Positions 25,920 through 61,870 of a DNA stretch of 64,000 nucleotides are shown here, in pieces. Source of the stretch: Bacteroidales bacterium (GTDB lineage: Bacteria; Bacteroidota; Bacteroidia; Bacteroidales; GCA-2748055); contig JAWOHR010000088.1 in NCBI GenBank assembly GCA_046485075.1, forward strand, positions 2,790 through 66,789. Direction: 5' to 3'. The notes beneath the pieces were generated by a model. The model saw only the letters and a program-made list of their open reading frames with translations. It did not search any database and had not been told where the DNA came from. The first letter of the stretch is position 1; every line of letters begins with the position of its first letter. A program made the translations under genes and the position numbers.

Positions 25920-26479
25920 AACTGATTCCTTATTAGATTTATCAAGTGCGCAAATTAGATAATATATAAACCAAATTCGAAGGTTTCTGTTGCAATTTGA
26001 TCAATAACTAAATAGTAATTGCCAGCCTAAATGACAGGGTGCAATTCTTTTGCAATCGTTCGTCTACCACAAACAGACATTCATCAAGAAAAGTGCAAAT
26101 TTCATGTATCAATTGTTCGTTAAATTATTAAGCGGTCGATTTAGCATTACTAAGTTGTGGTACATTGTCTTAATATCTGCCATTGAAAAAGCCCTTCGAG
26201 CTTTAGGAATGCTCCACCAAAGGATTGCCTTAGCAATATTTATCGAAGTGAGTGAAAAATTAAACTGAACAAGCTCATTGAGGAGCAGGACAAAGTCAAA
26301 ACCAGGATCAATAAAAATGAGCTCCTCAGGATCATAAAACAAATGGCTGATCGCATTATGAATGGGAAAGGTTGCCAAAAAGACTGAAAAACATGCACAT
26401 ATCGTTGAAAAATATCTTGAATCAAAGCCGGAACATAAAAAAAGTCAAGAAAATGATCATTTCACTTAAGATGAATGAA

Positions 26480-27955
26480 TTACGCATATTTAAATTTAAG
26501 GTATAGATTAAGCACCCCTCCGGTTTTCAACACTTTTATCAATGTTTTTTTAAAGCCTTTATTGATGGGGACATTGAGCAATTCGGGCCATAGTTTATCG
26601 ATCACCTTCACGTAAACCTTGAAAGTCGGGATTTCTAAATACTTTGGGTGGACTGACAGGTACTGCATCACCAGATCTCTGGAATTGAATACATTAATGT
26701 CTTCCTGTGAGATATCCTTATCCAACTGAATCTGGTTTCCCCAGTTGGCTATTCTTTCTTCCCAATAAAACAGGTCTATCAAATTAATATTATTCTCTGG
26801 ACAGAACACTCCAATTTCTTTTATCCACTGATCATAATAGTCAATGGCAAAACTCCATTTACCAACCCTATTCTTTTTAGCCAGATTTTCACCAGTGACA
26901 GTTATCTTTCTCCCCATGAACCATTCACTCCCGGCAGTGGCGGTGTTGCCTGGCAAATTGACTTTATTGTTGAAATTAAGATAGTAATTATATATTAAGG
27001 GTAAATACTTTTCTGATCCGAATTCATTGTTCTCAAAATAGACTCTCCTGAAATCATCATCCACTTCTATGTATGGGTCCAATACATGAAATTTCAGGTC
27101 CAGATTACCAAGCAGCTTTTTTGGAATTGTAATGTCAATAAAATTATCATCAACATGGTTCTCTTTGTTGATGTAATAATAAACTCGTTCCGGATTGCTT
27201 TTTGTTGCTGCCATAAGTGTTCGTGAATCCTTACCAGCTGTAACGGGCAACATTACCTCATATCTGTGCATAATGCCTTCCATAAATCCCTTCACCATAT
27301 GTGCACAATTCGACGCTACTTCTTTCAAAGGTCTCTGATCGTCGATCCTGCAAGATGGCCAGTAGCGATACCTGGAAGAGGTTTTCACATCAAAGTAGTG
27401 ATTTGGCATTAATTGCCTGATACCATCATAAATGGTAGTATCTCCGATGTTAGCGTTGTTCTTCAGAATAAATTCCTGAGAGTTGTAGTAGTCTAATATT
27501 TCCGGATGATGAGTCTTCTTCATCTGGAGAACCTTTGCGAGGAGGTAAGACTGAGAGGAGAACCATGCATCACCGTTTCCAAGAGAGTAGTATATTTTTC
27601 TTGCAGCTGTGGCATCATGAACTAATTTAAGATCTTCTCTGCTTTTATAAATCAGGACAAACCTACCTGTATATTTTCCAAGTTTGTGTAGGATTCCGTC
27701 ATAATCTAAAACCAAAAGGTCAATTAGGATTTCAAAATTTGACTTCTGCGGACTCTCAAAGTCAAATAAATCACCTAATAGCCAGATTTTCGTTCCATTC
27801 ACCTCCGCTATTGTTATATGGAGATCCACGTGTGAATAAAGTCTATAGGTGTCATTTACGATATACTCCTCATTTAGAAATGGGCACTTCACAGATTTAG
27901 GTGCAAGTATATATTGATTCCGAAACCTAAGCCTTTCTATCTCTTCCTGTTTCAT
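26480..27955 (-). CDS. uncharacterised asparagine-synthetase-like / PP-loop protein, no Cys nucleophile (paralogue 1)
   Basis: The ORF track start at 27970 is TTG, so the ATG at 27955 (MKQEEIERLRFRNQY) is preferred because it aligns with the paralogue start. Motifs are GRFVLIY..EDLKLVHDATAARKIYY, EVMLPVTAGKDSR and KVNLPGNTATAGSEWF. It is paralogous to 39171..40640. Confidence 0.6.
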   Translation of the reverse strand: MKQEEIERLRFRNQYILAPKSVKCPFLNEEYIVNDTYRLYSHVDLHITIAEVNGTKIWLLGDLFDFESPQKSNFEILIDLLVLDYDGILHKLGKYTGRFVLIYKSREDLKLVHDATAARKIYYSLGNGDAWFSSQSYLLAKVLQMKKTHHPEILDYYNSQEFILKNNANIGDTTIYDGIRQLMPNHYFDVKTSSRYRYWPSCRIDDQRPLKEVASNCAHMVKGFMEGIMHRYEVMLPVTAGKDSRTLMAATKSNPERVYYYINKENHVDDNFIDITIPKKLLGNLDLKFHVLDPYIEVDDDFRRVYFENNEFGSEKYLPLIYNYYLNFNNKVNLPGNTATAGSEWFMGRKITVTGENLAKKNRVGKWSFAIDYYDQWIKEIGVFCPENNINLIDLFYWEERIANWGNQIQLDKDISQEDINVFNSRDLVMQYLSVHPKYLEIPTFKVYVKVIDKLWPELLNVPINKGFKKTLIKVLKTGGVLNLYLKFKYA

Positions 27956-28133
27956 TTTTTTGATTATCAAACAATTTATTTGAACTAAGGAAAATTATTT
28001 TTCGATTTAAATTAAATTCAGACCCACCATTGACAATAGTAGTTCTGAGACTTTTAATAAATTGTTATTATATACGAAATGCCGGGATAAAGTTATGGAA
28101 TATCATCACCTCTCGGATTATCATATGAAGTCA

Positions 28134-31100
28134 TCATAGGACAATCAGTTTACGAATGGCAATAAAATTCCTGGTTAGAATCCGGCAGTAATATAGCCCA
28201 TTATTTAATCTTTGTCCAGATGCGTTTTTGCAATCCCATTCAAGGATAAGCGGTCCCGATCCGTTATGGTACTGCTCAAGCATTGTCACATATTTGCCAT
28301 TGCCATCGATCACCTCAATCCTAACATCGCCTGGTTCTTCCAGTGAAATATTAAAGAAGGCTTTGTCTGTTACCGGATTTGGATAGATGGTTAGTGCGTT
28401 GAAAAGGGGTAAATCATCCTCAAAATCTGTTGATAAATTTGACCTCAAAGGAGTTGGAGCAGGTAAAATAGTCCATACGATGTCAGCATCTGATACCCTA
28501 CCCCAGGATAGATTCGGACTAATACATGGGAAGGATACTGTATCAATCACTTCTCCCAAATAGCCAAACAATCCGATCTGCTCACCCGACTTGGATACTT
28601 TGAACCCAATATGCATGATCCCCTGATCCTCAGAATTATCTGCCCATAAAACAATGAAACCCCTACCCGGAATCGTTGTCGAATCGGGGTACTCAGATGA
28701 AATCCTGTAAACATATGGATCAGAAAGGCTGTCTGATAAAAATAATCCACCAATATCCAAAGGTTCGTTACCACTATTATACAATTCTATCCAATCATCA
28801 TATTCATTGGCTTCATCACAATAAATATTTAAATTATTTCCCATGACCTCATTGATCACCAGTTTTGAAAGATCGGGGTAATTATTAGGTCCGCCGGGAG
28901 TTGGAGGTATGGAAGTCCACCTCTCGGATTCCATGATTCTGCTGTAAGATGAGTTACTATACTGTTCTGAATAGGTAACTGAATCCAATATGGTCTCCAT
29001 GTCATAATGAATCAGTGCCAGTTGTTCTCCTTTCCTGCTAAGTTTAAAACTTACATGGTTGATCTCCTGGGCCTCTTCATTCTCCCCGTACAGGATATAG
29101 TAACCATTTGCAGGAATAGTAGTGAGTTGGGGAGAATGACTTGGGATTCGGTATTTCGCAGGATTTCCCAAACTGTCAGTAATGTACAATCCACCAAGGT
29201 TTACCGGGAAATCATTGGAGTTATAGAGTTCAATCCAGTCATTGAAGTTTCCATGGTCATCTTCTATGGAAGTATTGGAGGCCATAAACTCATTGAGGTG
29301 TATACCGGATATTACCGGCATATCGTTAAAGGCAGAGTATGTGGGTGGAAGATTTATCCAATCCCCTGTATTTGACAATCTGCTGTAAGAAAAATTCTTG
29401 AACTGATTTGGGAAGGTAACCGTATCTATATAAGTGGTGCCTTCAGGATCTACCAGGGCAAGTTGCTCGCCATCACCGCTCAGTTTGAATCCTAAATGAT
29501 GTACCCCCTGCTCTTGCTGATCATCGGCCCACAAAATCAAATATCCCTTTGGAGCAATGGTTGTTGAATCCGGGTATCCTGCCGGAATGCGGTACTTTAA
29601 CCGATCCCCGATGCTGTCTGTAATGAAGAAACCTCCAAGGTCTACTGCGAAATCGTTGTGGTTATATACCTCAATCCAATCGTCAAATTCGCCAAATTGA
29701 TCATGGTTTATCTCATTGCCTGATGCAACAATCTCAGATAGATACAAGTTCTCAGAGGGTCTGAGAATATTACAAGCGCCTGGGGATGCAGTCACGATTC
29801 TCAGGTCACAGCCACCATCCACAAAACGCCCCATAACCAGACCTGAAGGTAATTCGCCATAACTTAATGAATCGATAATTTGCTTGCCATCAGACTGGAT
29901 CAGACCTATTTGTTCTCCGTCATTACTCAATTTAAAATCCAGGTGAAGAACTCCCTGCTCCTCCTGGTTGTCAGCCCACAATACCATGTACCCTTTTGCG
30001 GGAATGGTGGTAGAATCAGAGTGGCAGGTTGGTATTCTGTAAACGGCCGGATTCGCCAAAGAATCAGTAATATACAGACCGCCTATATCAACTGGAAAGT
30101 CATTATTATTATAAATTTCAATCCAATCATCATATTCTCCAAATTCATCATGTACCGTTGACCTGTTACTGGCCATGAATTCATTGATAAACAAATTGTC
30201 AGTGAAATGAACCAGGTTTGAGCTGCCTGGAGTCGCATTAAGCCCCAATATTAGATTCTTTCCATCCGGGTATCGGCCCATGACATCGCCTCCAAATAAG
30301 TTGTTATAGCTAAGCGTGTCAAGATAGCCTGCACCCACCTGATAAACTCCTATTTGTTCCGTCTTGCTGTCCAACCTGAACCCCAGGTGCAGAGGGCCCT
30401 GTTCAGGTTGATTGTCAGCCCAGAGAATTTTAAAACCAAAAGGCGAAATCTTTGTGGATGGGTCACCGGTTGGAATCATATATTTCAGCTGATTTTGAAG
30501 ACTGTCTGTGAAAAATAATCCACCCAAATCAATCGTAACTGAAGTGGGATTGTAGATCTCGATCCAGTCATCCATCTCCTGATCTTCATCCGTGATACCA
30601 CAGCTGTTCTTAGCCAAAAACTCGTTGATTAGTAATTCCTTTCTCTCAAGTGGTTCATTCACCGCCATTGGAGTTGGCATCATATATTCGTATTGATTGG
30701 AATTCGACATGATACCGTAGGTCATATCTGATTCCAGGGAGGGAATGAGGAGGGAATCCACGTAGTGATAATCCTGGTCTATCTGTTGCACCAGTGTAAG
30801 AAGCTCCCCTTCCTTTTTAAGCTTGAAATTTGTGTGCAGCGGGCCCTGCCGATCATCATTGTCGCACCAGAGCAAGAGAAATCCTTTTGCCTTAACGGTG
30901 GTAAGCTCCGGAGTTCCATACGGAATCTGGTACTGGGTTTCATACCCGGCACTATCTGAAAGGTACCAACCTGCCAGGTCCACATCAAAATCATTGTCAT
31001 TATAGATTTCCACCCAGTCTTCCAACTGGCCAAAATCATCCCTGACATTGGTACTATTGGAAGCACAGATTTCATTTAAGTAGATTTTATTCTTAGGAGT

Positions 31101-33263
31101 ATCGGCTTTAAAAACAGCAGTGATCGCATCGTCGTTCGAAAGATTGAGAAATATGGTCTGATTACTTGAGGTGGAGGCCCCTTCCCAGTGAGAAAAAACA
31201 TACCCGCTTCGGGGTACAGCCACCAGCCGAAGGGGAACATTATTAAAAAAGGAGCCCGTAAAATTATTGGGGAGAGATACTTCACTGGCTTTCACAAAAC
31301 CCAGGGATGGATCATTCACATTGCAGGAAAGGTTGTACATTCCTGAAATGTTAAATTTTGCCATGAAGTGGCCCCTCACCACATCCGGATGATTCCTTGT
31401 AAAATCTGGCATCTTCTCTTCAGTCTGTGTCCAGAAGTAATCCGATTCAGGTCTTCCCCAACGCTCCATATGACGGCTCAGTTCGTCATTTATGTAAGCC
31501 CTGATGCTGTCATAAATCGGCGTTACGGTTTCCGGATTGAAGGTAGTATTGATGTGTCCCGCCATTCTTTGGATAAATTCATTTTTGAAATCCTTATTTT
31601 CCAATAACTCCGTGAATAGTCTTGTACTCTTATCATCCCTGGTTGCCCATTCCAGGCAGTTCCCGGTTCTTTGGTAAAGACCCCACCCAAAATCAGTATC
31701 ATACAAAACCCATCTCCATTTTCCTCCATCAGATTGAGGTCGCCAATATTTAACATTGTTATGCGGCCAGTCTTCATTTTGAAAATAAATATTGGCTAAA
31801 TAATAATTTAGAAACTCATTAATATCCATTTGAGTTGAGACATATTGATAATTCTCCTCAAGGTTAAGATCCTTATGGGTAACAAAATCCATAAGCGCCG
31901 TATAATGCTCAACCGATCCGCTGACCGACTCGCCCCACTCATAATTCATTCTTTCAAGCATATCTATCTCATCGGAATCAATCCCATAATTTGATGCTGG
32001 ATAGTACTCGTTGATTTTTTCTCTGATGTTCTGGATTCCCCAATACTCACCATTAATAAATATTACGGCAGGTTCATAAGCTTGCAGATCAATATCCATG
32101 CGGCCTTTGAGCAGAGTTTGCATAAATCCGTCTCTGAACATCGTTGCATAAGCGTCATTGCCGGAATTCCTTAAAACTATAGCTTTAAATTTATCCACAT
32201 CCTTCGATTGAAAGAACTTATAATCCAGACTGTTGTGACTATATTTATTCCTCGCATAGATGGCCAGGGATTTATACATGAACATCCTTGAGCATCCTCC
32301 ATAAATTTTTGTGCCAACAAGTTGATTTACTTCCTGCACTCCATCAGGACTAAAGTATTCAAAGTTAACCGGCCTCTCCCAATCCTGGTTCCAGTTCTGG
32401 GGATTCTCGAGGCAGTAACCCGCAATGCCGTTCGATCCGGTGACATAAATCCCATCATGACTTCCGAAGAAGTTTTTAGGATTAGTGGAGATCGACACAG
32501 TTGGCAAATTACTTCCTGCACCTAAGATATAGGTCTGTGTGTTTACCTTTCCTGGCAATTTACCTTCTTCAAAAAGACGTGCGCGTACAACAGTAGTCTC
32601 CAGCAACAGTATCGGTGATTCATAAATCAATGAAGATTGTACGGGCCACGATCCATCTGTTGTATATCTGATTAACCCTTCTGAGTCACCGGCATCAAGT
32701 TCCAGGATCTGAGCATCATCGTATATGCCAGCCTCTATGGAAAACCAGACCTCTGCAGGTAATAGAGTATCCTTTGTTGGATAGGTGTTGTTAACAGCTG
32801 ATGGAGTTGGTTCTGAATAATAGGCCCATTCGGAGATATCATCAACTTTCCTGCCATAGGATACATCAACGAATTGCTTCTGGTAGGTGACTGAATCCAC
32901 TAGCTGCCCATCAGGACTGAATAAAATGATCTTCCCCCCATCCATATATAACTTGATTTCCTCCGAAATCATGGTTCCTTCAGTTTGGAGCCAAACAATG
33001 CCATATTTACCAGGATTAATATACCCAAATTTTATCCTGGACATCTGCGGATTGGCCAGGTCGTTTGTCAGATAATGGCCGGCCAAATAAATAGTTTGAT
33101 TCCCCGAATTGTAAATTTCCACCCATTCCAGATAATTTCCACCGTAATCGAGGATGGTGTTAATATTCGATGCTTGAAATTCATTAATTCGTAGCTGTCC
33201 CTGACAAATCACAGACCAGAAAAACAGGCCGATTATGGTCCAGAGTTTGTCAAAAATTTTCAT
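28134..33263 (-). CDS. giant T9SS-secreted CotH kinase-family protein with seven lamin-tail (LTD) domains
   Basis: 1709 aa. Signal peptide, one N-terminal LTD (LRINEFQASN...WVEIYNSG), and a CotH core (LRNSGND, Y....ING.YWG.QN.REK, ED.WPHNNVKYWRP, RW.LYDTDFGWG). Six more LTDs follow (INEFMASN..DDWIE(I/L)YN...D(I/L)GG(L/F)(Y/F)(I/L)(T/S)DS), then a T9SS CTD (IYPNPVTDKAFFNI...RKLIVL). Confidence 0.85.
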   Translation of the reverse strand: MKIFDKLWTIIGLFFWSVICQGQLRINEFQASNINTILDYGGNYLEWVEIYNSGNQTIYLAGHYLTNDLANPQMSRIKFGYINPGKYGIVWLQTEGTMISEEIKLYMDGGKIILFSPDGQLVDSVTYQKQFVDVSYGRKVDDISEWAYYSEPTPSAVNNTYPTKDTLLPAEVWFSIEAGIYDDAQILELDAGDSEGLIRYTTDGSWPVQSSLIYESPILLLETTVVRARLFEEGKLPGKVNTQTYILGAGSNLPTVSISTNPKNFFGSHDGIYVTGSNGIAGYCLENPQNWNQDWERPVNFEYFSPDGVQEVNQLVGTKIYGGCSRMFMYKSLAIYARNKYSHNSLDYKFFQSKDVDKFKAIVLRNSGNDAYATMFRDGFMQTLLKGRMDIDLQAYEPAVIFINGEYWGIQNIREKINEYYPASNYGIDSDEIDMLERMNYEWGESVSGSVEHYTALMDFVTHKDLNLEENYQYVSTQMDINEFLNYYLANIYFQNEDWPHNNVKYWRPQSDGGKWRWVLYDTDFGWGLYQRTGNCLEWATRDDKSTRLFTELLENKDFKNEFIQRMAGHINTTFNPETVTPIYDSIRAYINDELSRHMERWGRPESDYFWTQTEEKMPDFTRNHPDVVRGHFMAKFNISGMYNLSCNVNDPSLGFVKASEVSLPNNFTGSFFNNVPLRLVAVPRSGYVFSHWEGASTSSNQTIFLNLSNDDAITAVFKADTPKNKIYLNEICASNSTNVRDDFGQLEDWVEIYNDNDFDVDLAGWYLSDSAGYETQYQIPYGTPELTTVKAKGFLLLWCDNDDRQGPLHTNFKLKKEGELLTLVQQIDQDYHYVDSLLIPSLESDMTYGIMSNSNQYEYMMPTPMAVNEPLERKELLINEFLAKNSCGITDEDQEMDDWIEIYNPTSVTIDLGGLFFTDSLQNQLKYMIPTGDPSTKISPFGFKILWADNQPEQGPLHLGFRLDSKTEQIGVYQVGAGYLDTLSYNNLFGGDVMGRYPDGKNLILGLNATPGSSNLVHFTDNLFINEFMASNRSTVHDEFGEYDDWIEIYNNNDFPVDIGGLYITDSLANPAVYRIPTCHSDSTTIPAKGYMVLWADNQEEQGVLHLDFKLSNDGEQIGLIQSDGKQIIDSLSYGELPSGLVMGRFVDGGCDLRIVTASPGACNILRPSENLYLSEIVASGNEINHDQFGEFDDWIEVYNHNDFAVDLGGFFITDSIGDRLKYRIPAGYPDSTTIAPKGYLILWADDQQEQGVHHLGFKLSGDGEQLALVDPEGTTYIDTVTFPNQFKNFSYSRLSNTGDWINLPPTYSAFNDMPVISGIHLNEFMASNTSIEDDHGNFNDWIELYNSNDFPVNLGGLYITDSLGNPAKYRIPSHSPQLTTIPANGYYILYGENEEAQEINHVSFKLSRKGEQLALIHYDMETILDSVTYSEQYSNSSYSRIMESERWTSIPPTPGGPNNYPDLSKLVINEVMGNNLNIYCDEANEYDDWIELYNSGNEPLDIGGLFLSDSLSDPYVYRISSEYPDSTTIPGRGFIVLWADNSEDQGIMHIGFKVSKSGEQIGLFGYLGEVIDTVSFPCISPNLSWGRVSDADIVWTILPAPTPLRSNLSTDFEDDLPLFNALTIYPNPVTDKAFFNISLEEPGDVRIEVIDGNGKYVTMLEQYHNGSGPLILEWDCKNASGQRLNNGLYYCRILTRNFIAIRKLIVL
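28440..31095 (-). repeat. array of six LTD-coding modules, period about 440-450 nt (diverged at DNA level)
   Basis: INE(F/V/I) module starts are seen near 31090, 30640, 30190, 29745, 29300 and 28865. Coordinates are approximate. Confidence 0.75.
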
Positions 33264-33664: not shown

Positions 33665-35929
33665 ATGAAGAAACCATTACTTATCTTTAGATTTCTCGTA
33701 TTGCTATTATCGGTATCATATATTGTAAATGGTCAATATACAGGTACTTATGATAACATCGCAGCATTTAAGAAAGCTAGTGCTTTAGATTCTGTCCCAG
33801 GTTTTGAACCTAGCAAAGCTGTTGATACTTTGCTAACTACCTGGGCTAAAATTCAAGGAACTGCACCGGTATGGTTGGAAATTGAACTCGGATCCTATCA
33901 CTATGTGGATGGATTTGGCATGGTCCTTCCCAATGCAGATGAACTGCCAACTGGCATTAAATTTCAAACAAGTCTTAATAGAGTATACTGGGTAGATCGC
34001 ACAAGTAAAACAGTTACTCTGCCAGGCACCTATGACTATTACCTGGGAGGTCCAATGATAGCAAAATACATAAGATTTTATATTACGTCAAAAGACAACA
34101 TTGCCTCTTTTTCGGAGGTTAAAGTGTATGGAGATGTGGTCGTACCCCCAACCCCTCCAATGGCACTCCCGGCCACGAATATTACAGGGTCAGGATTTAC
34201 TGCACGCTGGACCGACCGGGCTGTTGCTACAGGATATAGAATTAATGTCTCAACTAAAAATGATTTCTCAAGCTATGTTGAAGGATATCAAGATCTTGAT
34301 GTAGGTAATGTGCTTTCTGTTGATGTCTCTGGTTTATCCCCCATGACGAATTACTATTATCGGGTAGAAGCTTATAACATTGTCGGTGCTAGCGGAGTTT
34401 CCAATACAACAAATGTGACCACAATCAAACTATCACAATCAATTACGTTTGATGAGTTGGCTGGAAAATCCTATGGTGATACTGCTTTTTCTCCTGGTGC
34501 AAGTGCAAGCTCCGGATTACCGATCGGTTATACAAGTTCAAATGAGACAGTAGCCATGGTGACCAACAACATGGTAACCATTATAGGAATTGGAGAAACC
34601 ATTATAACCGCTTCACAGGAAGGAAATTCCCAATATGAACCAGCCATTCCGGTGACCCAGACCCTGGTGGTTGTCAGAAAGGGATTAACTGTTGACGGAG
34701 TAACTGCCGACAACAAAGAATACGATGGGACGACTGACGCAAGCATTAGCGGCGGTAACCTGGTTGGTGTATTAGATGGTGAAGATGTAATCCTGACAAA
34801 CACTGACCTGGCCAACTTCACACAGGCTGATGCCGGCACCGGGATCTCAGTGGTTACTTCCATGACCCTTTCCGGAGCGGATACTTCCAATTATGAACTC
34901 ATACAACCAGCTGTTAGTGCGGATATCACCGCCAAGGAATTATCTGTCATTGGTACAGTTGCGGCCAATAAGCAATACGACGCCACTACAACGGCCATCC
35001 TCAGTGGAGCCTCACTTTCAGGTGTTTTAGGTTCAGATGACGTAGGTTTGTCCAATGCCACTTCAGGAGCGTTCGCCCAGTCGGATGTGGGAAATGATAT
35101 TGTGGTAAGCACATACATGGCACTTGTTGGAGAAGATAGTGCAAATTACAGCCTGGAGCAACCATCACTTCTAGCCAATATTACTCAAAAGGAACTTACA
35201 ATTACTGCTGAGGACAAGAGCCGGGAGCAATGTGCTTCCAATCCTGATTTTACAGTCATTTATTCAGGTTTTGCAGGGGATGAAGATCAAAGTGTGCTCA
35301 ATCCGTTACCGGTGGCCTCAAGTGAGGCAGATCAATCCAGTTCCGCAGGTACTTATAATATCGTTGCATCAGGTGGTGGTTCAGCAAATTACTCCTTAGT
35401 GTATATAAATGGAACCCTGACTATTACACCTGATGTTACTCAACCAGAATTGGCGGTTCAGGATATAACCATTCAACTTGATGCATCCCATAATGCAAGC
35501 ATTACAGCTGCAGATGTTGTGATCAGTGCGGCAGATAACTGTTCACTGGCTGATACAATACTGAGTCAGTATACCTTTAGCAGCAGAGATATTGGTGAAG
35601 TTAACGTTTTGGTTACACTTACAGATGTTTCAGGCAATAGTGCAATTAAGATTATAACTGTCACGGTGGAGGACTATACCGGATACAACGAGTTGAATAA
35701 ATTTAATTCTAGTATCTTCCCGAACCCAACAGAGGGTAAGGTCCAGCTTGAATTCAATACACCTCCTGAAGAATTAAGTGTGCTGGATATTACAGGTAGG
35801 ATGATAATATCCAGGAATAATCTGGAACCCCAGGAGATTATTGATCTTTCTGAATACAACAGTGGTATTTATTTGTTTAGATTTAAAATTGGAGAGGAAT
35901 TCAAACATATCAAAGTGATAAAAAAATAG
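33665..35929 (+). CDS. T9SS-secreted surface protein (discoidin/F5-8 type C, FN3, Ig-like, MBG/YDG repeats, CTD)
   Basis: 754 aa. Signal peptide and a discoidin-like N-terminus (W..IELG....V.GFG....KYIRFYI....SFSEVKVYG). FN3 (LPATNITGSGFTARW...YYYRVEAYN), MBG-type repeats (K(E/Q)YD(G/A)TT.A ... NY.L), and CTD (IFPNPTEGKVQLEF...IKVIKK). Confidence 0.8.
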   Translation: MKKPLLIFRFLVLLLSVSYIVNGQYTGTYDNIAAFKKASALDSVPGFEPSKAVDTLLTTWAKIQGTAPVWLEIELGSYHYVDGFGMVLPNADELPTGIKFQTSLNRVYWVDRTSKTVTLPGTYDYYLGGPMIAKYIRFYITSKDNIASFSEVKVYGDVVVPPTPPMALPATNITGSGFTARWTDRAVATGYRINVSTKNDFSSYVEGYQDLDVGNVLSVDVSGLSPMTNYYYRVEAYNIVGASGVSNTTNVTTIKLSQSITFDELAGKSYGDTAFSPGASASSGLPIGYTSSNETVAMVTNNMVTIIGIGETIITASQEGNSQYEPAIPVTQTLVVVRKGLTVDGVTADNKEYDGTTDASISGGNLVGVLDGEDVILTNTDLANFTQADAGTGISVVTSMTLSGADTSNYELIQPAVSADITAKELSVIGTVAANKQYDATTTAILSGASLSGVLGSDDVGLSNATSGAFAQSDVGNDIVVSTYMALVGEDSANYSLEQPSLLANITQKELTITAEDKSREQCASNPDFTVIYSGFAGDEDQSVLNPLPVASSEADQSSSAGTYNIVASGGGSANYSLVYINGTLTITPDVTQPELAVQDITIQLDASHNASITAADVVISAADNCSLADTILSQYTFSSRDIGEVNVLVTLTDVSGNSAIKIITVTVEDYTGYNELNKFNSSIFPNPTEGKVQLEFNTPPEELSVLDITGRMIISRNNLEPQEIIDLSEYNSGIYLFRFKIGEEFKHIKVIKK

Positions 35930-36817: not shown

Positions 36818-36918
36818 AAGCCTTTTTGCCGTTAAAACTGCGTGAAACATTAATTCCTGAAATCCGTAAGAAACTACAGTAGAATCATAAACAAATGTAT
36901 TTAAATTGAATTTTGCAT

Positions 36919-52909: not shown

Positions 52910-53839
52910 TCAAATTATCTTCCTCACATTCACCCTGAAAGCATAAACCAATTGTTCTCTAAGAGTGAACTTCCTGGACTGATCAATCTGTTTATCATGC
53001 CACTCTAAACACTCCTTATCGTTCAATAAACGACTTTTAAACAGGAAATATCCATACCTCTCCCGTTCCTTTTTGTATTCCTTTTCCAGCTCTGCAGACA
53101 AGCCTTTATATTTAAACAGCTCCTTTTCTCTCAAGTTTAAATTGGTATGAAACCTTTCGGAATATTGGCTTGTAAAAGTTCCTTCACTTCTTCTTGTATA
53201 GCTGAGTACCTGGAAAACAAATCCCAGGTCGGAAATATTAAGGATCTCATAGGCCAGGGAGGTATCAAAGTGATAGTCGTCATGGCTATAAATGACCGGA
53301 TATCTTGATAGTTTCTTCAAAGTTTCAGTTCTGATCAACAGGGTCGTTTCGGAGCCCATGAGGTCATCAACTTGACGAAGCAATTGTTGTTTCAATACTT
53401 CCTTCCCGTCAAAAACAGGTCCCTTATAATAGTCCAACCCGGCACAGTTTACAATTTTATGATCGATGCGGTAGGAGGAGCAAACGCCCGCCCGGGGATT
53501 CGATTCCAAAACATCCACCATCTTTTCCAGGTATTCAGGGAAGATCCAGTCATCTGCACAAACCACTTTAAAGTATTTTGATTCATTGCAGTATTTGTGT
53601 GCATTATTGAAATTTGTTTTCATATCGACAAATTCCGGATTGGTAACTACCCTGAACCGGCTATCTGTTTTTACAAAGCTTTCTGCAATGGAAAGAGTAT
53701 GGTCCGTGCTCTGGTTATTAGCCACCACACATTCCCAATTTTCATAGGTTTGATTCCTGATACTCTCCAGGCACTCGGCCAGGTGTTTATCTCCATTGTA
53801 AACCGGGACTCCAATAGCTACTAAAGGTTTCATAATCAT
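52910..53839 (-). CDS. family 2 glycosyltransferase
   Basis: 309 aa. IGVPVYNGDKHL.ECL.SI..QTY.NWE and CADDW. Confidence 0.85.
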   Translation of the reverse strand: MIMKPLVAIGVPVYNGDKHLAECLESIRNQTYENWECVVANNQSTDHTLSIAESFVKTDSRFRVVTNPEFVDMKTNFNNAHKYCNESKYFKVVCADDWIFPEYLEKMVDVLESNPRAGVCSSYRIDHKIVNCAGLDYYKGPVFDGKEVLKQQLLRQVDDLMGSETTLLIRTETLKKLSRYPVIYSHDDYHFDTSLAYEILNISDLGFVFQVLSYTRRSEGTFTSQYSERFHTNLNLREKELFKYKGLSAELEKEYKKERERYGYFLFKSRLLNDKECLEWHDKQIDQSRKFTLREQLVYAFRVNVRKII

Positions 53840-56404: not shown

Positions 56405-58627
56405 CTATTGGCTTTGAATGATGAGTTTTCCTGAATATAGCTCCAGTCCGTTATAGATTGTATAAACGTAGATCCCAGGATTTACTTTCAGCTGATCGGT
56501 CTGAAAAGTTATATTCTTTTCAGGAATAAGAGATTCATTAGCCACAAGTCTGCCCAACTGATCGTAAAGTCTGAAGGTACCTGGATCTTTTTGATGCTCA
56601 TACCGGATTGAAAATTGACCCCTTGAAGGATTTGGAAACAGAGAGGGTTGATCTTCGAATGGAATCTCATCAACGCCTGAAGTGGCCAATAGTACATGCA
56701 ACCAAAATGCCTGATCCACATAGAACCATCCATCGGTTGCCCTGATCACGATATGGCTGTATCCCGCATTTTGAGCCTCCGGAATCCCGGCAATAAGTCT
56801 TGAATTGGGATAAAAGGTCATCCAATCAGGCATTTCGAGCACCAGATAATCAATTTCCTCACCATCGCCATCCTCCGCATTGAAAGGGTAAAAATAGGAT
56901 TCATGAACAACCACAGTATCTATAGGCTCAGTGGTAAATACAGGCGGATCATTTACAGGGTTTACTGTGACCAGCAGATTAAATACTGAACTCTTCGCTC
57001 CCAGTGGATCTTCAATATAGGTTTCAATATAGAGGTCCCCAAAATAACTGGGTTTGGGAGTAATCAGATTTCCATCGATTGTATAATTGCTGCCGGATTT
57101 CATCACGATCTGAAGCTCAGAGCTATTGTGTTCTGCATCATGAACATCCATATCATTGAAACTCATCAGATAGGTTTCATTTTCATCGAAACTGATCTCC
57201 GACTGTCCGGAATAGACCGGTGGATCATTCATGGGATTAATTCGCACCAGGGCCTGGTAGATGGGTCCGGGACCGACCACATCACTTACTGAAACATTCA
57301 CCAGCAGATTTGAATCAAAATCTTTTTCCGGAACCACAATATTACCCGATTTCGCATAATGCAGACCTGGCAATACGTTTAGAACCTGGTCATCGGGTGA
57401 CTGATCCGGATCGGGGTCATACACTGTAAAATCTGAAAGATACAATTCAATGCTCATGTCCTCTGTGGTCACCAGCTCTTTTTGCCCGGTAATTACCGGT
57501 GGATCATTCATTGGATTGATACGGAATATGACTGTATCAGATGCGGATTGCTTAAACTTCCCATTCACACCCTGGTCGGTAACTGTAAAGACAATAGGCT
57601 CCACACCTGTCCAGTTGGGATTCAAAATGGTGACAGAGGCTTCCCTGTTTTGGTTAATCACCACATTAAGGTTGTTGGTCGATAAATGAGTGGCAATCCA
57701 TGTCAGGTCCGAATCGGGATCCTCGAGATCAGACACATAATTGTCCAGGGGGATCACAGCAAATGATCCTCCCTCCGAAATGGCCTGGTCCGGGATTGGA
57801 CACAGTACGGGTAATGTATTAATATTGCTGGTAATCTTATCATACCAAAGGGCTGCCATTTTTCCATATCCATTGCTGTTAAGGTGGATTCCTTCAGGAT
57901 CGCCGGCATAAAAATCTTCGTTGGTATAAACAATCCCTGCATCATGCTCCATATCCACAATCACAATTTTATCTCCGTTATTGATCCTTGCCTGGGCCAT
58001 GGATTCCAGGAAAGCATTCCAGTTAATGGTGGTCTGACAACCCGATCCAGCAATACAAGGTAACCTGCGGTTAATGATCAGTGCCAGGAAAACGATGACC
58101 TCCTTACCTGCCCTGATTTCATATTGATCAATCAGGTTAAGGATTGCTGACACCCTCTGGTTTGCGATGAGGTCCGACTCATGTGTGACATCATTGGTAC
58201 CAATATGCAGCAGGATGATATCCGGATTGTAAACATCCAGGTAAGGTTGTGGTGGATTCAGGATTTGAATCCCGTGCCGCAAATCATATCCATCAATCAG
58301 TAGCCTTTCTACATACTGATCTCTTGAGCCGCTGATTCCGGCATGCTGGCAATCAGAGAAATAAGCACTCCCATTGGATTGACTTCCTACAAAGTCCACA
58401 TTATAACCACCCTGCTGTAACAGGTACTTTAAGCCATAACGATATCCAATCAGCCCCTCAGGCGGAAGTTGTAAGGAGGGATTTGGTTCTCCGTTTTCAC
58501 CAACAGTCAATGAATTGCCCAAGGCCATAATCCGAAGAGCTCCCTGTCCTGAACCTGCCATATGAATACTTAACATAAGTACCACTACGATCATCCATCG
58601 CCAATATTCTGATCTATCAAGCCTCAT
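56405..58627 (-). CDS. T9SS-secreted SGNH/GDSL hydrolase fused to cadherin-like repeats
   Basis: 740 aa. Signal peptide, SGNH blocks (IMALGNSLTVG, HIGTNDV, GIHLN), three NDPPV-delimited cadherin-like modules, a Cadg-like module (MPDWMTF...IAGIP), and a CTD (LFPNPSRGQFSIRY...LIIQSQ). Confidence 0.75.
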   Translation of the reverse strand: MRLDRSEYWRWMIVVVLMLSIHMAGSGQGALRIMALGNSLTVGENGEPNPSLQLPPEGLIGYRYGLKYLLQQGGYNVDFVGSQSNGSAYFSDCQHAGISGSRDQYVERLLIDGYDLRHGIQILNPPQPYLDVYNPDIILLHIGTNDVTHESDLIANQRVSAILNLIDQYEIRAGKEVIVFLALIINRRLPCIAGSGCQTTINWNAFLESMAQARINNGDKIVIVDMEHDAGIVYTNEDFYAGDPEGIHLNSNGYGKMAALWYDKITSNINTLPVLCPIPDQAISEGGSFAVIPLDNYVSDLEDPDSDLTWIATHLSTNNLNVVINQNREASVTILNPNWTGVEPIVFTVTDQGVNGKFKQSASDTVIFRINPMNDPPVITGQKELVTTEDMSIELYLSDFTVYDPDPDQSPDDQVLNVLPGLHYAKSGNIVVPEKDFDSNLLVNVSVSDVVGPGPIYQALVRINPMNDPPVYSGQSEISFDENETYLMSFNDMDVHDAEHNSSELQIVMKSGSNYTIDGNLITPKPSYFGDLYIETYIEDPLGAKSSVFNLLVTVNPVNDPPVFTTEPIDTVVVHESYFYPFNAEDGDGEEIDYLVLEMPDWMTFYPNSRLIAGIPEAQNAGYSHIVIRATDGWFYVDQAFWLHVLLATSGVDEIPFEDQPSLFPNPSRGQFSIRYEHQKDPGTFRLYDQLGRLVANESLIPEKNITFQTDQLKVNPGIYVYTIYNGLELYSGKLIIQSQ

Positions 58628-58658: not shown

Positions 58659-58690
58659 TTAGGGACTCAATCGGATGATTGAGTCCCTAA
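58659..58690 (-). terminator. perfect 14-bp stem / 4-nt loop hairpin between two T9SS cargo genes
   Basis: ttagggactcaatc-ggat-gattgagtccctaa, read directly. It lies 27 nt after the stop at 58717 and 32 nt before the ATG at 58627. The trailing tract on the minus strand is only moderately T-rich. Confidence 0.6.
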
Positions 58691-58716: not shown

Positions 58717-61700
58717 CTATTCCGCAACCAGGAATTTCAAAGTCTGGTTCAGCTTGCTGTTACGAAGCACGCAATAATAGGAGCCGTTGCCTAAATCTGA
58801 AATATCAATACTGTGTTTATCAACACTCACCGGAATATTCACGGTTTTTACCAGTGTTCCACTGTTACTGAAGATATGAGCTGTGGTAGCCTCTGTCAGT
58901 GTTTCAAACTCCAGATGCAGGACTTCTGCGGCAGGAGAAGGATAAATGGTGAACCTTTGTCCAATTTGATCCTCAATTCCCTCCGGGAAGTCAACCAGGA
59001 GTATAAAACTTTGCTCCACGGAAACAATTCCATCGCTCACACTTAGAATCACCAGAGTTTCGCCAGCATCACTATCTCTGGGTGTTCCATTTAAAATGGC
59101 ATTGGATTTAATAAAAGTTGCCCAGGTTGGTATATTAACGGCGGAGTACTCCAGATTATCCCCATCTGCATCAATGGCTTCGATCGAATATACATACAGT
59201 TTATTTACAACAGCATCGTAAACCGGTACAGAAACAACTTCGGGCGGGTCATTCACAGAATTTACTGTAATCGTAGCATTAAACACATTACTTTCTGCTT
59301 CCGAGTCTCTTACGATTACAGGCACTGTCAAAATCCCATAGAAATTGGCGTCCGGGGTTACCCTGGTACCATTTATACTGTAATCGTTTCCGGCAAGTAC
59401 AGTTAATGTAAGTTGCCCCATGCTGTTATCCGGATCAGTAACCATAAAGTGACTAACCGCCAAAGTAATGGGTTCATCCTCATCAATGGTGATGGTATTC
59501 TGACCTGTAATCACCGGAGGATCATTGATGGCTGTCACCTGAAGGGTGTATGCTTCATGGATCTGAACGGTTCCATCACTGATCATTATGTCAATGGCAT
59601 GATCCCCTGTGTTTGCATCCATTGGTGTTCCCGTTAGCGTGGCTACCCTTGTACCTGCTGTCCAGTCGAAGGTCAGCCAGGTTGGGACAGAAACAGCAGT
59701 CATTGTGATCACATCTGAGGGGTCAATGTCCTCTACAGTAAGCGTGTAGGAGTAAGGGACTTTCTCAGCCACAATCTCGGATGGAGTGCTGGTGATCACC
59801 GGCGGATCATTCACATTCTGAACATTGATCACGAACACCTGGTCCACCTGGGCTTTTCCATCCTCCACCCTGAGGGTCACGTTTGCGGGAATTCCTACCT
59901 CACTGTTACGGGGAGTGCCTGTAAGCAACCCTGATTTTTGTCCGGGTGCTGTACTGAAAGTCAACCAATCGGGTTTGACCACAGCAGTAAGGATAAGCGG
60001 ATCCCCGACATCCACATCATCAATATTAATCTGGTAGGAATAGAAAAGGTCCTGAGTAGCAGATGTCACCGGTTCAGAGGTAAATACCGGAGCATAGTTA
60101 CCGGGAGAACAATGCCCGACTGGTTCACCCATATTATAAAAATTAAATGCATCCTGGCTGCTTAGTGCAGAATAAAATATTCCCACCTCGTCAAGTTCAC
60201 CAGAGTAATGATACTCATTGGTAGCACGTTTCCAGTAACCGACCGTGATTGGAGTGGGCAGATCGGCCTTAAACGAATTGGCATAATTGGTGGAAACAAT
60301 TGCCGCTTCGGCTCCGTCTACATATAAAATGTTCTGTTGACCTGATCCATTGCGGACAGCAATCACATGGTGCCATTGGTTATCAAAAAGATAGGGGCCT
60401 CCCGAAATCTCAAAATTTTTAGGGATGGCATTGTTATCGGTTAAGGAGAAGGTAGCTTCTCCGCTTGAGTTCACTCCGACCCAAAATTTAGCCTTGTCTG
60501 GAAAATCTTCGGCTGCCCTGTGCCTTCCGACAATTACCTGGGTGGCTACGTTGGATGTTTTCATCCAGAATTCAACGGACCAGTTGGCATTATAATTCCA
60601 GTCAAACTCATCAGCGTTATCAGGGATATCCAGTTTTGTGGTTGAATTAAATAACTGTCCTCCATTTACAATCCCTGCTGTGGCGGATGGGGAGACCAAA
60701 GCAGTTGCATTATGTGCTCCATAGAAATCGGCATATTCCGGTCCTGAAGACTCATCAAGTTTTAATAATACTCCAAGTCCGGGAGGACAATCAGGGGCCT
60801 CGGCAATAAAAATCCTGAAACTTTGTGTATCTGCAGGAGGTACATTGTTATTTGCCCGAATAGATACATACCCGTCATCAGAGGTGCTGGCAGGCATCCA
60901 TGAGATCTGCCCGGTAATTTCATCAATGACCATTCCAGTGGGTTTCTGCAGAAGTGTATACCTCATATTGGTCTGCTGACCCGTGGCGCGAACCCTGTAG
61001 GAATACGATGAATTAACGGTTGCCTTCAATTCCGGGGCAGAAATGATTGAAGGAGCCAATCCGTCGCAATAACCGATCCCGTTTTCTCCATTCAATTTAT
61101 GCGCTGAAATTTCAGCCGAAGTAAGGGCCCGGTTATAAATGGCCACCTCATCCAGGCTTCCTGTATAGAAGTAGGCAGGGATACCGGAAGCATTGTTATG
61201 ACAACCCATGGTTAATGCTCCGTTAGAAATAAAACTTCCTGTATAGTTATACACAACTGAAGCAGCCATGGATCCATCCACATAGAGGTAGTTCCCATTG
61301 GTATTCTCATCTCTGATGGCTACAATATGCCTCCACTGATTATTGGCAATGCTTGAACTACTGATAATCTCCTTATATACTCCGTCGCTGGCCTGAACTT
61401 CAAATATAACACGCCCGGTACTATTGAGCCCAACGAACCAGTAGGCTCCCGCTGAATTGGAATCACGTTTGCCCACGATTACCTGGGTACTTCCGGTGGC
61501 AGCTGCCACTTTAATCCACAATTCAATGGTAAAACTTCCCCCCAGGGGAAAAGCAAAGTCGGAATGACTACTTACACTGGCCGATTTTGCTCCGTCAAAA
61601 TATTTGGCATTCCCAACCCTTCCATCCACCACATTTGTCAGGATGGAAGAACTGGTTGCATCGTGCACACTGATGAAATCGCTGAGGATGGTGGTATTGA

Positions 61701-61815
61701 CCTCCTCGAACTTCCAATAGGCTTTCATATCACTGGGACAAGTCTGTGCCATTAAAGCTCCAATGCCCGCAAATAACATCGTCACCATGGTTGATAATAG
61801 AAATGTTTTTCTCAT
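58717..61815 (-). CDS. T9SS-secreted protein with two LamG (concanavalin-like) domains and cadherin-like repeats
   Basis: 1032 aa. Signal peptide and two LamG_3-type domains (FTIELWIK...W.HIVA.RD....LYVDG...G.LDEV.IY..AL(T/S)). Cadg-like modules (KPDWLTF, VPTWLTF, IPTWATF ... L.GTP), NDPPV-delimited modules, and a CTD (IYPSPAAEVLHLEF...KFLVAE). Confidence 0.8.
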   Translation of the reverse strand: MRKTFLLSTMVTMLFAGIGALMAQTCPSDMKAYWKFEEVNTTILSDFISVHDATSSSILTNVVDGRVGNAKYFDGAKSASVSSHSDFAFPLGGSFTIELWIKVAAATGSTQVIVGKRDSNSAGAYWFVGLNSTGRVIFEVQASDGVYKEIISSSSIANNQWRHIVAIRDENTNGNYLYVDGSMAASVVYNYTGSFISNGALTMGCHNNASGIPAYFYTGSLDEVAIYNRALTSAEISAHKLNGENGIGYCDGLAPSIISAPELKATVNSSYSYRVRATGQQTNMRYTLLQKPTGMVIDEITGQISWMPASTSDDGYVSIRANNNVPPADTQSFRIFIAEAPDCPPGLGVLLKLDESSGPEYADFYGAHNATALVSPSATAGIVNGGQLFNSTTKLDIPDNADEFDWNYNANWSVEFWMKTSNVATQVIVGRHRAAEDFPDKAKFWVGVNSSGEATFSLTDNNAIPKNFEISGGPYLFDNQWHHVIAVRNGSGQQNILYVDGAEAAIVSTNYANSFKADLPTPITVGYWKRATNEYHYSGELDEVGIFYSALSSQDAFNFYNMGEPVGHCSPGNYAPVFTSEPVTSATQDLFYSYQINIDDVDVGDPLILTAVVKPDWLTFSTAPGQKSGLLTGTPRNSEVGIPANVTLRVEDGKAQVDQVFVINVQNVNDPPVITSTPSEIVAEKVPYSYTLTVEDIDPSDVITMTAVSVPTWLTFDWTAGTRVATLTGTPMDANTGDHAIDIMISDGTVQIHEAYTLQVTAINDPPVITGQNTITIDEDEPITLAVSHFMVTDPDNSMGQLTLTVLAGNDYSINGTRVTPDANFYGILTVPVIVRDSEAESNVFNATITVNSVNDPPEVVSVPVYDAVVNKLYVYSIEAIDADGDNLEYSAVNIPTWATFIKSNAILNGTPRDSDAGETLVILSVSDGIVSVEQSFILLVDFPEGIEDQIGQRFTIYPSPAAEVLHLEFETLTEATTAHIFSNSGTLVKTVNIPVSVDKHSIDISDLGNGSYYCVLRNSKLNQTLKFLVAE

Positions 61816-61862
61816 GTTTAAAGGTTTTATTGATTTGCTGTTTTGATTAATTTCCTTCGTCT

Positions 61863-61870
61863 CAAAATTA
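61863..61870 (-). promoter_or_regulatory. candidate -7 box TAATTTTG at head of the long minus-strand gene array
   Basis: The reverse complement of caaaatta matches TAnnTTTG, 48 nt upstream of the ATG at 61815. Confidence 0.35.

Follow-up and report, generated by a model that had tools for sequence, protein, structure and literature searches.

An AT-rich, probably chromosomal Wzx/Wzy-type polysaccharide locus with embedded type IX secretion cargo genes in an uncultured Bacteroidales bacterium

In Vibrio cholerae the vps-I/rbm/vps-II cluster interleaves Wzx/Wzy-like exopolysaccharide (EPS) genes with genes for matrix proteins, namely RbmA (FnIII), the lectins RbmC and Bap1 and the lyase RbmB, and the EPS bears O-acetyl and amide modifications (PMC12993940, PMC11637428, PMC5605196). 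We describe here a 64-kb stretch of DNA from an uncultured Bacteroidales bacterium (the window, by which we mean that whole stretch) and in particular its region 25920-61870, where genes for a Wzx/Wzy-type surface polysaccharide lie among five genes for large proteins that carry the type-A C-terminal domain (CTD) of type IX secretion system (T9SS) cargo. The logic of the two clusters is alike, but the protein families are unrelated, the secretion route here is the T9SS with its CTD, the phylum is another one and the present system is known from its genes alone.

Other described systems share parts of this arrangement. The E. coli group 1 capsule/colanic acid type has the Wzx, the Wzy-like protein, several glycosyltransferases (GTs), sugar-nucleotide genes, a low G+C content and a variable GT cassette between conserved flanks in common with our locus, but its phosphoglycosyl transferase (PGT)-Wza-Wzc set is matched only in the clusters of relatives and not in the window. 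The E. coli cps locus also encodes a capsule-retaining lectin, Wzi (PMC3791409); the idea of a locus-encoded surface lectin is the same, although large T9SS proteins with LamG and He_PIG domains take the place of an outer-membrane barrel and there is no Wzi in the window. The Pseudomonas alginate operon (AlgI/AlgJ/AlgF/AlgX, AlgL) likewise has, among its synthesis genes, an MBOAT with an AlgJ/AlgX-like partner and a lyase that acts on a uronic-acid polymer; it differs in being synthase-dependent and in having AlgF and a periplasmic PL5 lyase, AlgL, whereas here we find a Wzx/Wzy system, no AlgF and a T9SS PL14-LamG fusion. In Porphyromonas gingivalis PorU attaches type-A CTD cargo to anionic lipopolysaccharide (A-LPS), a surface glycan made by the Wzx/Wzy route (PMC5445135; PMC7468200). 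There the glycan is an anchor and its genes, which include Wbp, Vim and WaaL functions, are scattered; in our locus the cargo genes lie within the cluster itself, which is coupled to Wza/Wzc in relatives.

Bacteroides-type capsular polysaccharide loci have UpxY/UpxZ regulators at their 5' end, and none is present here. The RemA protein of Flavobacterium johnsoniae is reportedly a T9SS-secreted, mobile surface lectin that depends on a polysaccharide made by the cell (remC, wza, wzc). It resembles our case in pairing a T9SS lectin with the cell's own Wza/Wzc-exported polysaccharide; RemA is of the SUEL type while the proteins here are LamG/ConA-like, and remA is said not to be encoded in a polysaccharide locus. 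Polysaccharide utilisation loci can encode T9SS-secreted enzymes, such as ChiA of F. johnsoniae, and so also place glycan-active T9SS cargo in a glycan locus, but they are catabolic and contain SusC/SusD, while the present locus is biosynthetic and lacks uptake genes. The known links between the T9SS and glycans in Bacteroidota (A-LPS anchoring, RemA) are not operonic unions with a biosynthetic cluster. Targeted searches of the literature turned up no account of T9SS cargo genes lying within capsule or EPS loci, an absence that is not proof of novelty.

An AT-rich polysaccharide locus is ordinary; its conserved T9SS component is the interesting part. We read the region as the AT-rich, recombining centre of a chromosomal Wzx/Wzy super-locus of at least 60 kb for a surface polysaccharide, either capsule or EPS, that would be exported by the Wza/Wzc route, with conserved genes for putative T9SS lectins, esterase and lyase, and not as a mobile island, and put the probability of this reading at about 65%. 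The polysaccharide theme runs past both borders of the region: Ugd, RmlACD and PGM genes lie at 5.3-11.6 kb, and in relatives sugar-nucleotide genes, Wzc and Wza lie to the right of the gene for a DXP-reductoisomerase-like (DRL) protein, the last gene of the window.

Gene content and cargo proteins

The genes of the region are given below by position in the window, strand and assignment (aa, amino acids; percentages are aa identities; handles beginning with L denote loci of relatives).

26480..27970, minus: AsnB-like paralogue 1, with the PP-loop-like motif PVTAGKDSR; no Pfam family
28134..33263, minus: cargo with CHB_HEX_C, CotH kinase-like and seven lamin-tail domains (LTD) and type-A CTD (Pfam, NCBIfam)
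33665..35929, plus: cargo with F5/8 type C (discoidin), fn3, two YDG and MBG domains and type-A CTD (Pfam, NCBIfam)
36029..36817, plus: WecG/TagA/CpsF-family glycosyltransferase (PF03808, 130.9 bits; TIGR00696, 95 bits)
36913..37848, plus: GT2 glycosyltransferase (Pfam); 55-67% homologues in L021 and L031
37845..38993, minus: GT4 glycosyltransferase (Pfam); 55% homologue beside the PL14 gene in L024
39171..40640, plus: AsnB-like paralogue 2, 51% identical to paralogue 1
40663..43548, minus: cargo with PL14-like lyase head (PF21294, 64.8 bits), two fn3, LamG and type-A CTD
43864..44874, plus: NodB-type polysaccharide deacetylase (Pfam, NCBIfam); 48% homologue in the L021 cluster
44912..46087, minus: GT4 glycosyltransferase (Pfam), end of the 12-gene array
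46101..46955, minus: open reading frame (ORF) of 284 aa (hyp284), no family
46962-47972, minus: Gfo/Idh/MocA oxidoreductase (Pfam, NCBIfam)
48002-49006, minus: short-chain dehydrogenase/reductase (SDR), epimerase/reductase (Pfam, NCBIfam)
49013..50245, minus: Wzy-like polymerase candidate, 410 aa, about 10 hydrophobic segments (topology and position)
50274..51437, minus: GT2/GNT-I-like glycosyltransferase, first ATG taken as start (a GTG-started ORF reaches 51506); 46-51% homologues in L030-L032
51448..52887, minus: Wzx (MOP-family) flippase (PF13440, 208 bits)
52910..53839, minus: GT2 glycosyltransferase, conserved partner of Wzx (Pfam)
53845-54945, minus: AlgJ/AlgX-like protein with transmembrane anchor and GTDTHW motif (PF16822, 36.8 bits, cut-off 26.5)
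54946-56385, minus: MBOAT, AlgI-like (PF03062, 92.6 bits)
56405..58627, minus: cargo with SGNH/GDSL head, Big_9/cadherin-like and He_PIG domains and type-A CTD (Pfam, NCBIfam)
58717..61815, minus: cargo with two LamG (ConA-like), Big_9/cadherin and four He_PIG domains and type-A CTD, opening the 12-gene array (Pfam, NCBIfam)

A preliminary description of this DNA had assigned the five embedded type-A cargo genes heads of CotH plus LTD, discoidin plus MBG, PL14-like plus LamG, SGNH, and two LamG domains, and Pfam and NCBIfam agree with each of these. A sixth type-A cargo gene, for a protein of 2142 aa with fn3, PKD and HYR domains (the giant gene, 19491..25919, minus strand; Pfam, NCBIfam), lies in DNA of normal G+C and abuts the region. 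All six C-termini pass TIGR04183 (31.7-47.9 bits, cut-off 23), with PF18962 in agreement, and by inspection all six N-termini are signal-peptide-like, a basic start being followed by a hydrophobic stretch. In the head of the SGNH-CTD protein Ser39, the GTND block (Gly-Asn) and His248 are kept across seven homologues. The PL14 head found no match in the PDB as a single sequence and required a profile of four such heads, which matched two PL14 alginate/glucuronan lyase structures, 5GMT (AkAly30; E = 6.6e-20) and 3A0N (vAL-1; E = 3.6e-8); all four heads have the lysine of the GGKLP motif, which aligns to 5GMT.

The Wzx protein matches PF13440 (208 bits) and PF01943 (98 bits) and scores 119 bits with NF007773, under its equivalog cut-off. 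Its presumed partner had no Pfam, NCBIfam or PDB match, even with a profile of six sequences (the PDB search gave only noise), but a homologue is kept beside Wzx and GT genes in L019 (50%), L021 (54%), L028 and L031; from its topology and conserved position this 410-aa polytopic protein is a candidate Wzy-like polymerase. The Wzx half of the earlier Wzx/Wzy label is thus secured by family and the other half is a call from topology and position, with no family match. Six GTs can be counted (WecG/TagA, two GT4, two GT2 and one GT2/GNT-I-like), not the seven claimed earlier, and the two genes of the region that had been left unnamed are the paralogous AsnB-like ORFs. The MBOAT/AlgJ-like pair, the NodB deacetylase, the SDR and the Gfo/Idh/MocA enzyme were all upheld by Pfam/NCBIfam. 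The last of these is generic, at 130 bits against a cut-off of 450 for UDP-GlcNAc 3-dehydrogenase. AlgF is not among the window ORFs.

The window proteins include no initiating PGT (Bac_transf/WecA-type), no Wza/Wzc pair, no UpxY-type regulator and, by Pfam/NCBIfam across the 64 kb, no integrase or transposase, all as first noticed; no NusG-like, UpxY or UpxZ protein was found in the window or in the related loci checked. There are likewise no WaaL, WbpB/WbpE-type aminotransferase or Vim genes in the window, and no SusC/SusD or other uptake genes near the cargo genes.

The 12-gene same-strand array previously described is real. It runs on the minus strand from 61815 to 44912 with gaps of 89, 19, 0, 5, 22, about 10, 28, 6, 29, 6 and 13 nt, the value of about 10 nt holding for a GT2-like gene that starts at its first ATG. 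Upstream of the LamG-CTD gene (58717-61815) that opens the array, at a distance of 55 nt, is a Bacteroidetes-type -7 motif, TAATTTTG. The 89-nt gap between the LamG-CTD and SGNH-CTD genes holds a perfect palindrome with a 14-bp stem, TTAGGGACTCAATC GGAT GATTGAGTCCCTAA (58659..58690), which is a possible terminator or attenuator that would set the LamG-CTD gene apart from the array genes that follow. A scan for sigma-70 promoters and terminators was uninformative, with 49 promoter-like sites against 48.9 expected and a promoter type that is wrong for Bacteroidota, and a scan for TAnnTTTG gave weak hints only.

Conservation of the locus in relatives

All comparison sequences were metagenome-assembled genomes (MAGs) or metagenome contigs, some of them with frameshifts. 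On the right side of the region conservation is strong. The contig L018 (JGI) has the same order of genes, with the LamG-CTD protein at 81% identity, SGNH-CTD at 77%, MBOAT at 95%, the AlgJ-like protein at 85%, GT2 at 88% and Wzx at 70%. A second contig (LamG-CTD 65%) repeats the series LamG-CTD, SGNH-CTD, MBOAT, AlgJ-like, GT2 and Wzx and has an Abhydrolase_3 gene on the other side, so that the right third overall is syntenic in relatives at 65-95% identity. L012 and L013 share the SGNH-CTD (63%), LamG-CTD (64%), Abhydrolase_3 (68%) and DRL (89%) genes. DRL is followed on its right in L012 by genes for two dTDP-sugar isomerases, an aminotransferase, an SDR, a nucleotidyltransferase, Wzc and Wza, and we therefore expect the export pair of the window genome just past 64 kb; the lack of an initiating transferase and of Wza/Wzc is most simply read as an effect of where the window ends.

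More distant clusters repeat the association. L019, on a contig of 927 kb, has MBOAT, AlgX, sugar-nucleotide genes, two LamG-CTD genes, SGNH-CTD, GT2 (59%), Wzx (62%) and the Wzy-like gene (50%); about 23 kb away on the same contig, L014 holds Gfo/ADH, GT4, a beta-helix-CTD gene, PL14-fn3-LamG-CTD, Abhydrolase_3, Bac_transf, Wza and Wzc. In L101 (a Bacteroidales MAG) and L102 two or three LamG-CTD genes and an SGNH-CTD gene lie between sugar-nucleotide genes and GT2-Wzx. By Pfam, L024 runs from Bac_transf, Poly_export and Wzc through LamG/He_PIG-CTD, SGNH-CTD, MBOAT and AlgX to biosynthetic genes (nucleotidyltransferase, SDR, isomerase, C-methyltransferase, GT2, an unknown gene, GT4) and PL14-fn3. 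The PL14-fn3-LamG-CTD architecture itself occurs in L014, L015 and L024. Orthologues of the LamG-CTD protein are present in one to three copies per locus (81% in L018, 65% in the second contig, 64% in L012, 48% in L019).

The SGNH-CTD gene ends 19 nt upstream of MBOAT, and its orthologues lie directly upstream of MBOAT in L018, L024, L026, L028, L060 and the second contig. A further comparison was anchored on MBOAT, a biosynthetic and not a cargo gene: metagenome contigs were scanned and 80 loci were annotated with a CTD hidden Markov model built from the six tails of the window and by BLAST of the window proteins. In the clade with at least 67% MBOAT identity, seven of the eight informative loci have a CTD gene on the same strand at most 400 nt upstream, and the eighth has one a gene away; among the more distant MBOAT loci a CTD gene is directly upstream in 2 of 64 (Fisher p = 2e-7 against 7 of 8). 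The embedding of cargo genes, on the same strand and with short gaps, thus spans many independent relatives whose cargo proteins range from about 30% to 81% identity. Judged by this conservation, the LamG-CTD, SGNH-CTD and PL14-LamG-CTD genes are genuine members of the locus.

For the left side, the DUF3822 flank gene was used to scan species-representative genomes and yielded 11 loci, all from uncultured Bacteroidetes/Bacteroidales MAGs. Their sugar-nucleotide module is syntenic throughout (L001-L011, 56-98% identity), and the order Ugd-Rml-PGM...helicase-DUF3822-RsmD-giant fn3-CTD is common to all relatives, the giant gene being present at the same site in each. In the closest, L001, nucleotide identity is 96% over 6557-14383 and 93% over 15989-24374, and similarity stops at 24374, the edge of an array of five tandem 282-nt fn3 repeats (24451-25878) at the 5' end of the giant gene. 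Past the giant gene the relatives again have SGNH, CotH-LTD-CTD and PL14-LamG-CTD genes. The order of giant gene then CotH-LTD-CTD is shared with L001, L002, L011 and L015, and in L001, L002 and L015 the series giant-CotH-LTD(-PL14)-GTs differs in content from that of the window. L015, for example, has giant (SGNH-fn3-CTD), CotH-LTD-CTD (52%), PL14-fn3-LamG-CTD (33%), GT2, YdjC, GT4 and a Wzy-like gene (35%). The recurrence of these cargo types past the giant gene indicates that the same chromosomal site is occupied, with a different GT content.

The middle of the region is more variable. Homologues of GT2a, GT4a, GT4b, NodB and the Wzy-like gene (48-56% identity) are found reshuffled in L021 and L024, and no counterpart was found in any fetched locus for the two AsnB-like genes, WecG, F5/8C-MBG-CTD, hyp284, Gfo or SDR. 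On these comparisons the stretch of about 24.4-49 kb appears to behave as an exchangeable, type-specific cassette between conserved flanks, of the sort well known in O-antigen and capsule loci.

The cargo types do not all share this conservation. Homologues of the CotH-LTD-CTD protein (46-54%) adjoin the giant gene in L001, L002 and L015, and such proteins are widespread in FCB-group phyla, with more than 1800 matches at E <= 1e-30 among 8000 candidates scored. In distant genomes, among them L103 (a Calditrichaeota MAG) and L104, they lie beside ECF-sigma/FecR genes or other CTD proteins. We rejected a general tie of CotH-LTD-CTD genes to polysaccharide loci, three distant contexts having no such link; the tie is at most a weak one and appears limited to the close lineage. 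None of the fetched loci has an orthologue of the F5/8C-MBG cargo, which is known only from this window.

Two observations on cargo paralogy may be added. The giant gene of the window is without the N-terminal SGNH head that its orthologues in L001, L002 and L015 carry, and that head shares 36% identity with the one in the free-standing SGNH-CTD gene (56405-58627). The LamG/He_PIG-CTD gene is tandemly duplicated, in two or three copies, in L019, L101 and L102, which suggests a diversifying paralogy of the putative lectin.

Composition, borders and competing explanations

The stretch is AT-rich, as had been noticed, and its profile is not flat: G+C is 0.472 for 1-25919 and 0.403 for 25920-61870, and five earlier hand counts of G+C on single 60-nt lines (34, 31, 19, 23 and 25) were reproduced exactly. 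Within the region it is 0.396 for 25920-56404 and 0.447 for 56405-61815. A least-squares fit of two breakpoints to 200-nt bins placed these at 25,800 and 56,600, the three segments averaging 0.472, 0.396 and 0.447. Taken in 2-kb windows, G+C lies at 0.46-0.49 as far as 25 kb, at 0.35-0.44 for 26-57 kb and at 0.43-0.46 beyond; the right border is gradual. The lowest values (0.35-0.39) fall in the 33.6-44.9 kb block. G+C at third codon positions (GC3) is 0.536 +/- 0.044 in 17 left-flank genes against 0.426 +/- 0.048 in the region's 21 genes (Mann-Whitney p = 1.7e-6), and the drop is therefore not due to amino-acid composition. With G+C of 0.474 and GC3 of 0.524, DRL is back at flank values. The step in sliding G+C thus stood, while the tetranucleotide signature turned out to be native-like: after normalisation for composition, correlation with the two flank segments is r = 0.93-0.94 for 50-62 kb (flank against flank, 0.94) and slightly lower, r = 0.86-0.90, for the 26-50 kb segments. 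Low G+C is well known for O-antigen and capsule clusters. That usual makeup, together with shuffling or replacement of the GT and modification cassette (about 24.4-49 kb), probably accounts for the AT-richness seen here.

The preliminary description had framed the 36-kb region as a composite island, which would make it a genomic island acquired horizontally by a chromosome of higher G+C. The sharp fall in G+C of 7.6 points at about 25.8 kb, the 11-point fall in GC3, the very AT-rich 33.6-44.9 kb block, the end of L001 homology and the genes without counterpart in the fetched loci would all fit such an event. We consider it very unlikely, for the mobility genes are missing, no credible tRNA was found in the window by ARAGORN or Rfam (Rfam returned nothing), no direct repeats flank the region within the window, the right border is gradual, the 49-62 kb part is syntenic at identities at least equal to those of the flanking genes, tetranucleotides correlate with the flanks at r = 0.86-0.94 and the chromosomal site has the same types of cargo in relatives. 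Alignment with relatives thus gave a conserved right third (in L018, L012 and the second contig) beside the break in L001, and replacement of the middle part is already covered by the super-locus reading. The same break, abutting the repeat array, together with a source that is probably a metagenome assembly, raises the thought of an assembly chimera joined in the tandem fn3 repeats at 24.4-25.9 kb; this is hardly credible, since gene order across the junction matches L001, L002, L011 and L015, DRL returns to flank composition and the tetranucleotide signature is uniform.

Two further explanations accept a native locus and differ on what the cargo does there. The polysaccharide might be an anchor or glycan for type-A cargo (A-LPS-like or O-glycan-like) and not its substrate, the two being co-inherited for that reason. 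The P. gingivalis precedent, the Wzx, the WecG/TagA transferase, the weak similarity of the Gfo/Idh/MocA enzyme to UDP-GlcNAc 3-dehydrogenase and the conserved linkage of cargo and cluster speak for it; we nevertheless think it quite unlikely, as coupling to Wza/Wzc in relatives denotes capsule or EPS and not a lipid-A-linked glycan, WaaL, Wbp-type aminotransferase and Vim genes are lacking in the window, the Wzx scores 93.8 bits against a cut-off of 720 for the O-glycosylation flippase model, and lyase, esterase and lectin heads suggest action on a glycan. Alternatively co-location could be positional, with adhesins and foraging enzymes that act on external substrates or surfaces gathering with polysaccharide genes in a fast-evolving surface region. 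CTD genes do cluster with each other, the LamG-CTD family is multi-copy, CotH-LTD-CTD homologues occur elsewhere in unrelated contexts, the biosynthetic core is cargo-free in L030 and L032, and cargo identity does not track that of MBOAT (73% against about 30% in L024; 61% against 45-48% in L019). As a general account this is unlikely, given same-strand, operon-like arrays whose gaps measure 4-90 nt (the SGNH-CTD and MBOAT genes of the window are 19 nt apart; in L024 the cargo genes lie between Wzc and MBOAT), recurrence in more than 10 independent contigs (p = 2e-7) and no SusC/SusD or other uptake genes nearby; it stays plausible for the CotH-LTD-CTD and F5/8C-MBG cargo. The earlier proposal that T9SS cargo tailors, cuts or tethers the linked polysaccharide is accordingly borne out, as to conserved co-location, by the LamG-CTD, SGNH-CTD and PL14-LamG-CTD genes, while the CotH-LTD and F5/8C-MBG links are weak.

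Several points weigh against the super-locus reading with its conserved T9SS component. MBOAT loci at 60-63% identity (L030, L032, L038) keep the biosynthetic core and have no cargo genes, the order in L030 and L032 being PGT-Wza-Wzc-MBOAT-AlgX...GT2-Wzx-GT-Wzy, which indicates that the cargo is an add-on of one clade, dispensable for synthesis. The PGT and Wza/Wzc are seen in the clusters of relatives and not in the window of this genome, and the Wzy was assigned from topology and position. T9SS cargo genes tend in any case to cluster, as in L103, where three further CTD genes adjoin the CotH-LTD-CTD gene, and part of the co-location might therefore be a matter of position. In other phyla the homologues of CotH-LTD-CTD do not adjoin polysaccharide genes, and a kinase, once secreted, would find no ATP; nor is there a conserved partner for the F5/8C-MBG cargo. 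The loci compared are mostly metagenomic, some frameshifted, and the proposed link between cargo and polymer is read from the genes of an uncultured organism.

A predicted extracellular layer, and neighbouring features

For the substrates, the roles of the cargo and the export partners in this genome we infer the following scheme. Repeat units would be assembled on undecaprenyl phosphate by the six GTs from precursors supplied by the flanking Ugd, Rml and PGM genes and by the Gfo and SDR tailoring enzymes; Wzx would flip the units and the Wzy-like protein would polymerise them. The polymer is likely to contain uronic acid because Ugd is present in the conserved flank and the PL14-type lyase is a beta-eliminating enzyme, and it probably contains rhamnose or another 6-deoxy sugar, from the Rml genes. 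The MBOAT/AlgJ-like pair may O-acetylate it in the periplasm, NodB may remove part of its N-acetyl groups and the two AsnB-like enzymes may amidate it, paralogue 2 being a candidate amidoligase for the uronic-acid carboxyl; Vibrio VPS contains amide-modified uronic acids (PMC12993940). Export would use a PGT-Wza-Wzc set such as relatives have just beyond the position of the right end of the window. Outside the cell the LamG/He_PIG proteins, which are the best tether candidates, would bind the polymer and retain or organise it at the cell surface, the T9SS SGNH protein would remove O-acetyl groups and the PL14-LamG lyase would cut the uronic-acid chain for length control, release or turnover. 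The SGNH protein is more plausibly an esterase than a transferase because there is no acyl donor outside the outer membrane, and the CotH-LTD protein is unlikely to be an extracellular kinase because there is no ATP donor there.

We tentatively propose, as a possibility somewhat short of an even chance, that T9SS LamG/He_PIG lectins tether, and an SGNH esterase and a PL14-LamG lyase edit, a Wza/Wzc-exported, O-acetylated uronic-acid polymer, forming a dedicated, operon-encoded extracellular layer in an environmental Bacteroidales clade. If this is true, the T9SS is functionally coupled to polysaccharide biogenesis in a manner hitherto undescribed. A functional link would offer a model for the retention and remodelling of capsule or matrix in Bacteroidota that have no Wzi-type lectins, would explain what the abundant, uncharacterised LamG/He_PIG-CTD and SGNH-CTD families of cargo do, and would yield matched enzyme-substrate pairs of PL14-like lyase, SGNH esterase and native polymer. 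The locus also gives reason for caution, AT-richness alone having lent a native, partly conserved locus the look of an island.

The AsnB-like proteins, of about 490 aa, belong to a large family (2848 representatives of 50%-identity clusters at E <= 1e-3, 677 at E <= 1e-30) that appears to be uncharacterised. It has no Pfam match even at E <= 5 and no PDB match with a single sequence or a 52-sequence profile; similarity to AsnB and class-II glutamine amidotransferases (GATases) is faint, the best PDB match being a GATase-II domain at E = 0.83. An AlphaFold2 model from two sequences was unusable (pLDDT 41), and neither copy has a homologue in the approximately 100 related loci fetched. For the hyp284 protein (46101-46955) Pfam, NCBIfam and PDB searches all gave nothing, the fetched loci contain no homologue of it, and its single-sequence AlphaFold2 model was unusable too (pLDDT 45.5).

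The features of the window outside the region, apart from the giant gene, are these.

5276..11648, plus: sugar-nucleotide module of Ugd (UDP-glucose 6-dehydrogenase), SDR, RmlA, RmlC, RmlD and PGM/PMM, normal G+C (Pfam, NCBIfam)
12079-13938, minus: second CotH-domain gene, 619 aa, no CTD detected, in the flank of normal G+C
14508-15989: radical-SAM/B12-binding/DUF4070 gene
62072..63190, plus: Abhydrolase_3 (acetyl-esterase/lipase family), a neighbour of cargo genes in relatives too (Pfam)
63187..63987, minus: DRL-like oxidoreductase, probably truncated at the window end (the L012 protein has 431 aa)

ARAGORN placed an 87-nt tRNA-Gly at 17766-17852, which is almost certainly a false positive, for it lies inside a conserved ORF (17484-18119, 70-95% aa identity in relatives) and Rfam finds no tRNA there. 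The second CotH gene is 96% identical in L001 and absent at that position in L002-L011. The radical-SAM gene is missing from L001, where 14383 joins 15989, and present in L002, L003, L005 and L006; as judged from this alignment, the difference is either a recent loss in the L001 lineage or an indel polymorphism. The DRL_cat gene recurs in clusters L012, L028, L030 and L032, usually beside an RmlC-like isomerase, and some DRL-bearing loci also have a C-methyltransferase, a combination that may point to a sugar precursor of an unusual kind, perhaps branched or C-methylated.

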